A DNA stretch of 32,000 nt from Candidatus Brocadia sp. (lineage in GTDB: Bacteria; Planctomycetota; Brocadiia; Brocadiales; Brocadiaceae), in NCBI GenBank assembly GCA_021650915.1, contig CP091279.1, forward strand, positions 2,640,001 to 2,672,000. Direction: 5' to 3'. Each line of letters starts with the position of its first letter. The stretch's first letter is position 1. Both the position numbers and the translations under genes were made by a program. Positions 4,532 to 4,813 of the stretch are shown one piece after another. The notes below the pieces were generated by a model. It made no database searches. It was not told the origin of the DNA and saw nothing but the letters and a program-made list of their open reading frames with translations.

Positions 4532-4813
4532 ATGGCGAAAAAAGGGCAAACGTATTTTTGCGAGATTTGCAGACAAAAAGTCGTTGTTACGCGAGAGGGA
4601 TTTGGCGTGCTGGTGTGCTGTGGTCAGGAGATGCATTTGGTCGGCGCCAAGGGAATGATGGCCACCTGGACCGCAGCCCATCACAAACCCGAAGACGGAG
4701 TAAAATTTCAATGTGACGTGTGCGGGCAGCAGATAGACGTGATTGTTGAAACCACGGGCATCCTGGAATGCTGCGGTCAAAGGATGCACCGGATTGAGGC
4801 GAATGTCGGCTAA
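4532..4813 (+). CDS. Tandem (two-domain) desulforedoxin-like rubredoxin-type iron protein
   Basis: 93-aa ORF with two repeats, each with exact C-x2-C-x15-C-C spacing (FCEICRQKVVVTREGFGVLVCCGQEMH and FQCDVCGQQIDVIVETTGILECCGQRMH). GAGGG lies 7 nt upstream of the ATG. The stop at 4811-4813 abuts the nuoH ATG at 4814. Confidence 0.8.
   Translation: MAKKGQTYFCEICRQKVVVTREGFGVLVCCGQEMHLVGAKGMMATWTAAHHKPEDGVKFQCDVCGQQIDVIVETTGILECCGQRMHRIEANVG

Follow-up and report, generated by a model that had tools for sequence, protein, structure and literature searches.

Closest Described Systems

The desulforedoxin (Dx) of D. gigas (PDB 1DXG/1CFW; Pfam family PF06397) is a homodimer of 36-residue chains, and a domain of the same family forms the N-terminal part of desulfoferrodoxin, the 2Fe superoxide reductase (SOR; e.g., that of D. 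baarsii, 1VZG/2JI1). Here we describe a 93-amino-acid (aa) protein, referred to as Dx2, in which two diverged copies of this domain are fused through a conserved linker of about 17 residues, and whose gene differs from that of D. gigas desulforedoxin in its genomic setting, since it lies between nuoG and nuoH in a complex I (nuo) operon of Candidatus Brocadia sp. (contig CP091279.1 of GenBank assembly GCA_021650915.1). The window is the whole stretch of 32,000 nucleotides (nt) that was analysed, positions 2,640,001 to 2,672,000 of the forward strand of that contig, and all coordinates below are counted from its first nucleotide. The redox domain itself is known; what is new is the fused form with its conserved linker, and its constant link to a remodelled complex I in every anammox lineage sampled. 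In the literature searched, there is no paper that links desulforedoxin either with nuo or with anammox bacteria, which agrees with an initial annotation of the locus, made from the DNA letters alone, that knew of no desulforedoxin-type accessory of complex I. The gene also goes unmentioned in published genome descriptions of Jettenia and of a new anammox family.

Two other described systems bear on the locus. The first is the ‘NUO-2’ complex of Nitrospina gracilis, for which a highly similar complex was noted in Kuenenia, and for which quinol-to-ferredoxin reverse electron transport was suggested (Lucker et al. 2013; PMC3578206). The window operon resembles it in the additional clusters of NuoF, one [2Fe-2S] and two [4Fe-4S], and in a NuoG with extra Fe-S clusters and a part that resembles formate dehydrogenase (FDH). 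All of the genes were described as lying in one Kuenenia operon, which we infer to be kustc0822-0841. The NUO-2 paper does not mention a Dx gene, and it describes the flavin mononucleotide (FMN) site as apparently missing, whereas the FMN loop GLRGRGGGGFPTGEKW is intact in the NuoF of the window. A Nitrospinaceae nuoH locus (L018) is likewise without Dx2.

The second is the pathway of anaerobes in which rubredoxin and NADH:rubredoxin oxidoreductase (NROR) supply SOR, rubrerythrin and flavodiiron enzymes (PMC10156729). Dx2 would resemble rubredoxin in its predicted Fe(Cys)4 one-electron chemistry, a likeness of function and not of family: it lacks the rubredoxin fold, would hold two centres per chain, and in the window is found beside complex I genes and not beside NROR.

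The Dx2 Gene and Its Protein

Dx2 is encoded by the open reading frame (ORF) at 4532..4813 of the forward strand, ATG to TAA with the stop codon included, and has the sequence MAKKGQTYFCEICRQKVVVTREGFGVLVCCGQEMHLVGAKGMMATWTAAHHKPEDGVKFQCDVCGQQIDVIVETTGILECCGQRMHRIEANVG. The gene begins 26 nt beyond nuoG, whose TAG stop lies at 4503-4505, and a GAGGG Shine-Dalgarno-like element (4520..4524, forward strand) is located 7 nt 5' of its ATG. At its other end the TAA stop (4811-4813) directly abuts the ATG of nuoH (4814-4816), and the two codons form a TAA-ATG junction at 4811..4816. No promoter-like or terminator-like sites were found in 4200..5100 of the window, and Dx2 lies inside the nuo operon on the same strand, with no transcription signals separating it from its neighbors. 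An antisense ORF (4487..4789) overlaps the conserved Dx2 frame.

The protein has cysteines at positions 10, 13, 29, 30 and 61, 64, 80, 81, which make up two exact C-x2-C-x15-C-C patterns (CEIC...CC and CDVC...CC), the same ligand spacing as in D. gigas desulforedoxin. Domain 1 spans residues 2-36 (4535..4639; predicted metal ligands C10, C13, C29 and C30), which is also the best-matching Pfam stretch, and domain 2 spans residues 54-88 (4691..4795; predicted ligands C61, C64, C80 and C81), which corresponds to the second Pfam and TIGRFAM stretch. Between these units of about 36 aa lies a linker of some 17-20 residues, delimited here as residues 37-53 (4640..4690), for which an AlphaFold2 (AF2) model predicts a helix at residues 42-49. 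Aligned to each other, the two halves share 13 of 35 residues (37%). The single chain, its two repeats with desulforedoxin spacing, and its placement between the nuoG stop and the nuoH start are all as the initial annotation had described them.

Both halves are matched by profiles of the family, with 65.9 bits for PF06397 (E = 2.4e-18, cut-off 23) and 49.8 bits for TIGR00319 (cut-off 36.05), each in two stretches. Of the proteins with a solved structure, D. gigas desulforedoxin comes closest by sequence (E = 8.3e-7, residues 2-34), and the N-termini of the two align residue for residue (MAKKGQTYFCEIC versus ANEGDVYKCELC); the second-best is the N-terminal Dx domain of desulfoferrodoxin (E = 3e-5). 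The AF2 model, built on 20 homologues, has a pLDDT of 81.8 and a pTM of 0.72. One 36-residue domain of the model superposes on 1dxg_A with a target TM-score of 0.98, a root-mean-square deviation of 0.4 Å and 50% identity; the output of the overlay does not name the matched domain, but the 50% identity fits domain 1. The second domain has a matching strand pattern, which is seen in the AF2 model only. By motif, profile score and fold, Dx2 belongs to the desulforedoxin family. One Fe(Cys)4 center is predicted for each domain, and the model makes it plausible that the two domains pack as a pseudo-dimer.

Dx2 is nevertheless not a classical D. gigas-type desulforedoxin, which is a homodimer, but one chain of 93 aa. 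Nor is it a true desulfoferrodoxin, because PF01880 has no match, and TIGR00320 gives 42.1 bits against a cut-off of 146.9, over the N-terminal 40 positions only. Homologues of Dx2 are named in databases either ‘desulfoferrodoxin FeS4 iron-binding domain-containing protein’ or ‘hypothetical’, and the ‘desulfoferrodoxin’ label is a misnomer because Dx2 has no catalytic SOR domain (the His4Cys iron site). The Pfam scan of Dx2 gave PF06397 alone above cut-off, with no match to the rubredoxin family PF00301 or to the known accessory subunits of complex I (homologues of NDUFS4, NDUFS6 and NDUFA12, and Nqo15/16).

A search of 5.8 billion proteins returned 72 Dx2 homologues of 88-95 aa, and those that carry an organism name are all from anammox Planctomycetota (Brocadiaceae, Jettenia, Kuenenia (KsCSTR_45590), Loosdrechtia and Scalindua). 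When 1.84 billion cluster representatives were searched exhaustively with a profile, the Dx2 family appeared as one 50%-identity cluster (E = 1e-45), and all matches outside of it, apart from one fragment, had values of 1e-13 or worse. Across 49 distinct homologues all eight cysteines are invariant, as are F9, E11, Q15, K16, the FGVLVCCG and GILECCG blocks, and M42, M43, W46, T47 and P53 of the linker. Pairwise ratios of nonsynonymous to synonymous substitution (dN/dS) between Dx2 and its orthologues are 0.05-0.18, with synonymous sites near saturation.

In K. stuttgartiensis MBR1, the positional equivalent of Dx2, kustc0833 / KSMBR1_2477 (‘hypothetical protein’), has transcript values of 206.6/172.9, which compare with 226.8/118.5 for nuoG and 130.4/79.2 for nuoH in the same supplement (Smeulders et al. 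2020; PMC7438415). The positional equivalent is thus transcribed at nuo-operon levels. Together, the low dN/dS, the invariant cysteines and this transcript rule out a shadow ORF, and they bear out the initial call of a real gene.

Fusion of Dx domains occurs elsewhere. In metagenomes, P0114 (73 aa), P0119 (81 aa) and P0147 (95 aa) have two Dx domains each, and P0112 (196 aa) has three Pfam-matched Dx stretches, which means that fused Dx domains are not confined to anammox bacteria. These proteins are only distant relatives, however (E ≥ 1e-13, against 1e-45 for the anammox cluster), and do not have the MMATWT...P linker. Two or more Dx-like cysteine modules outside of anammox bacteria were also seen in P0113 and P0118, which like P0112 are about 195 aa, and in P0149 and P0150, which with P0114, P0119 and P0147 fall in the range of 73-98 aa. 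The proteins of about 195 aa share a conserved C-terminal GYYFQGGG tail.

Conservation of the nuoG-Dx2-nuoH Order

Every one of the 53 nuo loci examined from anammox bacteria has Dx2 between nuoG and nuoH; eight of these loci came from exact-protein look-up, three from genomes and 42 from metagenomes. The three genome loci are the Brocadiales loci among the matches listed in a scan of genome contigs with NuoH, which was supplemented by a scan of metagenomes with the Dx2 family alignment. That second scan gave 63 loci: the 42 with nuoG-Dx2-nuoH, 18 with a second arrangement (see below), and three partial matches that span little beyond the first Dx domain. The nuoG-Dx2-nuoH order is found in Brocadia, Jettenia-like, Kuenenia, Loosdrechtia and Scalindua-type lineages. 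Examples are Kuenenia (L001/L002), Loosdrechtia (L005), two metagenome-assembled genomes from lakes (L006/L008), Brocadia AMX1 (L007), K. hertensis (L009), L093, L094, and a clade whose 90%-identity cluster holds a Candidatus Scalindua protein (L089/L090). Where longer upstream sequence is available, the order is nuoA, B, C, D, E, F, G, Dx2, H, I, J, K, L, M, N. The NuoH of the window and that of Candidatus Brocadia sp. AMX1 share 91% identity, which makes the window Brocadia-like.

Outside of this group the gene is absent. Among the matches listed, none of 77 non-anammox nuoH loci has a Dx-like ORF in the 6 kb to each side of nuoH; these loci contain the closest relatives of NuoH, from phyla and families that include NC10, Acidobacteriota, Zixibacteria, Poribacteria, Geobacteraceae and Nitrospinaceae. 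Dx2 is therefore not a general trait of operons with a related NuoH. It is kept across the sampled anammox lineages and is thus lineage-specific, and its recurrence in the same position argues for membership in the operon and against a chance neighbor, as had been proposed from the window alone.

The position of Dx2 is conserved, but its translational coupling to nuoH, which had been part of the same proposal, is not. The TAAATG junction of the window is also present in Brocadia AMX1, and in Kuenenia, as well as in the lake genome L006, Dx2 overlaps nuoH by 8 nt. Elsewhere the two genes are separated: the called gap in Loosdrechtia is 138 nt, and in one Brocadiaceae group there are approximately 350-650 nt between them. 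The single locus of that group that was read (L105) has a toxin-antitoxin-like pair here, with a 61-aa protein and a 125-aa PIN-like protein (3380..3920 of that locus). Inserts are also seen on the other side of Dx2, where Kuenenia has a PHD-like/HicA toxin-antitoxin pair between nuoG and Dx2 (6875..7794 of L001) and L006 has a DUF559 gene (7159..7718 of that locus). That unrelated inserts occur both before and after Dx2 points to a probable hot spot for insertion within an essential operon.

Dx2 might itself be a passenger that landed at this hot spot in the anammox ancestor and does no more than borrow the promoter of the operon, since the same gap took the PHD/HicA pair, the DUF559 gene and the PIN-type pair as unrelated cargo. 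Those inserts are sporadic, whereas Dx2 is present at this spot in each of the nuo-type loci examined and is under strong purifying selection, and Scalindua retains its nuo copy despite having a second copy elsewhere. We consider a passenger the least probable explanation of the gene, and give it hardly any credence.

A Variant Complex I

The operon is a variant and not a canonical complex I, and the standard 14-subunit type assumed in the initial annotation did not survive comparison of its NuoF and NuoG. The NuoF-like subunit (611 aa; 32..1867, forward strand) is of the HydB/Bfu type by its Pfam, NCBIfam and full-length PDB matches, and has a [2Fe-2S]-ferredoxin-like region at its N-terminus, followed by the FMN/NADH core and, at the C-terminus, a 2x[4Fe-4S] domain. 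Its best PDB relatives are the B subunits of electron-bifurcating Bfu-type enzymes, which align over the full length with E values of ∼1e-220 and include NfnB and the HydB subunits of [NiFe]- and [FeFe]-hydrogenases, whereas canonical NuoF aligns with residues 145-545 only. Among the matches listed, full-length NuoF of the Bfu type was found only in the three anammox (Dx2-bearing) loci of 80 nuoH loci; in the 77 non-anammox loci, NuoF aligns essentially over the core only.

The NuoG-like subunit (878 aa; 1869..4505, forward strand) has a complete molybdopterin-oxidoreductase (FDH-alpha-like) domain by profile and PDB matches. It scores 516 bits with TIGR01591 (FDH alpha) against 435 bits with the NuoG model, and its best solved relatives are YjgC and the alpha subunits of NAD-dependent FDHs. 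The catalytic Cys/Sec-His motif was not found in it; the region that we take to be the site of this motif reads NAIDNVANIKSPYL. With the expected residues absent from that presumed site, an active FDH is considered unlikely.

The make-up of NuoF raises the question of whether Dx2 is a partner in flavin-based electron bifurcation. Here the HydB-type NuoF would send electrons along two routes, one of low potential that leads to ferredoxin through the 2x[4Fe-4S] domain at its C-terminus and one of high potential, and Dx2 would be a soluble high-potential acceptor, donor or gate that helps to make reduced ferredoxin for CO2 fixation. Consistent with this, the proposal of quinol-to-ferredoxin reverse transport was made for the highly similar Kuenenia complex (PMC3578206), NuoF as a whole shares approximately 55-60% identity, by eye, with the B subunits of bifurcating enzymes of solved structure, and Dx2 co-occurs with the Bfu-type NuoF. 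This co-occurrence is, however, drawn from one clade, the quinone site already provides a high-potential outlet, and the operon of the Dx2 paralogue (see below) points to reactive-oxygen chemistry and not to ferredoxin. Further, we know of no Bfu enzyme that uses a Dx or rubredoxin partner. A bifurcation partner is therefore doubtful, and we judge it just as improbable that Dx2 is a dedicated extra redox partner or fifteenth subunit of a bifurcating HydB/Bfu-type complex I, coupling quinone/proton-motive-force chemistry to ferredoxin reduction. If such a complex with Dx2 does exist, it would explain the source of low-potential electrons in these autotrophs.

A Second Copy in Scalinduaceae

Scalinduaceae have a second Dx2 copy of 88-93 aa outside of nuo, which is 63-70% identical to the first. 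It starts 6 nt beyond the stop of an NROR gene (Pyr_redox_2 + Rubredoxin_C), and so occupies the rubredoxin slot behind NROR in the pathway introduced above; of the two types of Dx2, only this paralogue is adjacent to NROR, and the Dx2 of the window is not. Its operon encodes a protein with a twin-arginine translocation (TAT) signal and an SOR domain, NROR, Dx2, a 77-aa rubredoxin-like/Dx mini-protein, two short rubrerythrins and a single Dx of 41-46 aa, and adjoins a cbb3 oxidase cluster. This arrangement was seen in six look-up loci and in the 18 metagenome loci mentioned above (L003, 5925..9675; also L004, L087, L091 and L136-L153). The operon thus brings three distinct small Dx-type proteins together, and the TAT signal implies an exported superoxide reductase, which is unusual.

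The nuo-type and NROR-type proteins have 44 alignment columns conserved in both groups, with surface and linker residues among them. They differ consistently by K3Q, T7I, G23A, K40E, A49V, K67Q (nuo-type to NROR-type) and a two-residue deletion. A neighbor-joining tree of the 93-aa proteins did not separate the groups cleanly, and misplaced P0057, so that the copies were assigned by gene context and the discriminating columns instead of the tree. The simplest reading of these alignments is that the paralogues share a biochemical role and would have slightly different docking partners.

In a search for an NROR neighborhood in Brocadiaceae, the close NROR homologues were all from Scalinduaceae, with two more distant ones in uninformative contexts. 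The inventory of Okabe et al. (2023) has no NROR for K. stuttgartiensis, and an Fdp-rubredoxin operon is described there for Scalindua only, whereas neelaredoxin and rubrerythrin are widespread in anammox bacteria (PMC10156729). With the acceptors widespread and no NROR listed for K. stuttgartiensis, there is an open electron-donor slot in Brocadiaceae.

The context of the paralogue, behind NROR in an SOR/rubrerythrin operon, also bears on the two roles that had been offered for the window protein, namely an extra electron entry or exit point, and an assembly or iron-delivery factor. It favors the former and disfavors the latter. A factor or metal chaperone that matures the Fe-S-rich N-module, itself outside of the electron flow, would be in keeping with a small metal-binding protein encoded beside subunits with extra Fe-S clusters, and the complex I of Thermus does carry a frataxin-like subunit, Nqo15. 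Dx domains, however, are known as redox centers and not as iron donors, the paralogue is in the rubredoxin position directly behind NROR, and the Kuenenia transcript is as high as those of structural subunits. We regard an assembly factor as very unlikely.

A stronger competitor is a stably bound fifteenth subunit, located on the hydrophilic arm, in which two Fe(Cys)4 or structural zinc sites would form a fixed electron side-branch or a clamp of the N-module. Small, metal-binding or metal-related, lineage-specific additions to this arm are known from other complex I enzymes (the cysteine-rich, NDUFS6-type zinc subunit with its Paracoccus homologue, and Nqo15 of Thermus), although they have no sequence relationship to Dx2, and Pfam gives no match to known accessory subunits. 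The operon position is invariant across the sampled Brocadiales lineages, the stop-start junction with nuoH in the window suggests near-stoichiometric synthesis, Dx2 co-occurs with the lineage-specific Bfu-type NuoF and FDH-like NuoG, and the lysines whose conservation is limited to the nuo-type copies hint at a surface dedicated to docking. Against this, a 63-70% identical paralogue occurs in a soluble NROR/rubrerythrin setting and has the same conserved residues, and toxin-antitoxin inserts are tolerated on either side of Dx2, which implies that tight coupling is unnecessary. On balance, a bound subunit is possible, but we think it rather unlikely.

Probable Function

The explanation that we prefer, with slightly less than even confidence, is that Dx2 is a soluble, cytoplasmic, rubredoxin-like one-electron carrier with two centers, which is made with the variant complex I and exchanges electrons with its NuoE/F/G module. 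Its two domains, joined by the conserved helical linker, would each carry one electron separately. The gene is a fixed extra member of the variant operon in all sampled anammox lineages (order Brocadiales), and in this genome it is probably co-transcribed with nuo and translationally coupled to nuoH. Dx2 would dock transiently on the cytoplasmic NuoE/F/G module and draw single electrons from the flavin or from the extra Fe-S clusters there. These would then pass to acceptors of high potential, of which the most plausible are the enzymes that clear O2 and reactive oxygen species (superoxide reductase, rubrerythrin or flavodiiron enzymes). The Scalindua paralogue would do the same job behind NROR. 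That Dx2 binds iron, packs as a pseudo-dimer and works with this donor and these acceptors is what we infer; what the data show directly are the gene, its motifs and domain family, the fold of one domain, conservation and synteny, the operon of the paralogue and the Kuenenia transcript.

Several observations weigh against a soluble carrier of this kind. From the sequence, Dx2 might bind zinc rather than iron, and its redox activity and partners are predicted. Gene order by itself favors neither a soluble carrier nor a stably bound subunit, and the co-occurrence of Dx2 with Bfu-type NuoF within one clade amounts to a single evolutionary event. Lysines K3, K40 and K67 of the nuo-type copies are Q, E and Q in the NROR-type, so the partner surfaces have diverged somewhat and the nuo copy may act differently. 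The link to oxidative-stress enzymes comes solely from the operon of the paralogue, and annotation of the window revealed neither oxidative-stress nor rubredoxin-related genes. Lastly, kustc0833 was equated with Dx2 by its gene position, directly upstream of nuoH_1, and not by sequence.

The electron routes between hydrazine oxidation, the quinone pool, NAD(P)H and ferredoxin are unsettled in anammox bacteria, and their complex I variant is little studied. Dx2 places a conserved redox gene, formerly ‘hypothetical’ and with a transcribed positional equivalent in Kuenenia, in the middle of this operon. It could be the missing donor of electrons to the enzymes that defend these oxygen-sensitive bacteria, which are important in wastewater treatment, against oxygen and superoxide, and the resemblance of the NADH module to bifurcating enzymes bears on ferredoxin reduction for CO2 fixation. 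At 93 aa, and colored and active in electron paramagnetic resonance if it binds iron, the protein would also be a cheap experimental handle. For specialists in complex I or anammox bacteria the finding would be moderately surprising, and Dx2 may or may not alter the function of the complex; if Dx2 is only a soluble rubredoxin substitute that borrows the promoter, the gain is a modest improvement in annotation.

Other Features of the Window

Downstream of Dx2, nuoH (4814..5809) is identified by PF00146 (E = 1.7e-132) and by the NuoH equivalogs of NCBIfam. The nuoI-nuoN block follows at 5811..12305, also on the forward strand and assigned from Pfam and the ORF list, with nuoI at 5811-6236, nuoJ at 6381-6890, nuoK from 6856 or ∼6892 to 7194, nuoL at 7202-9115, nuoM at 9186-10745 and nuoN at 10842-12305. 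Approximately 6 kb downstream of the operon is an IS110-family transposase gene (DEDD_Tnp_IS110 + Transposase_20; 18495..19505, reverse strand). Four ORFs of 200-411 aa on the reverse strand have no Pfam match at E ≤ 1e-4 (19894..21051, 21931..22536, 23370..24143 and 30743..31981). The window also has genes of carbohydrate metabolism at 13472..15511 (reverse strand) and at 24070..25836, 25938..26888 and 27983..30349 (forward strand), and the enzymes encoded there are a glycogen debranching enzyme, phosphoglucose isomerase, a class II fructose-bisphosphate aldolase and phosphoketolase (XFP).

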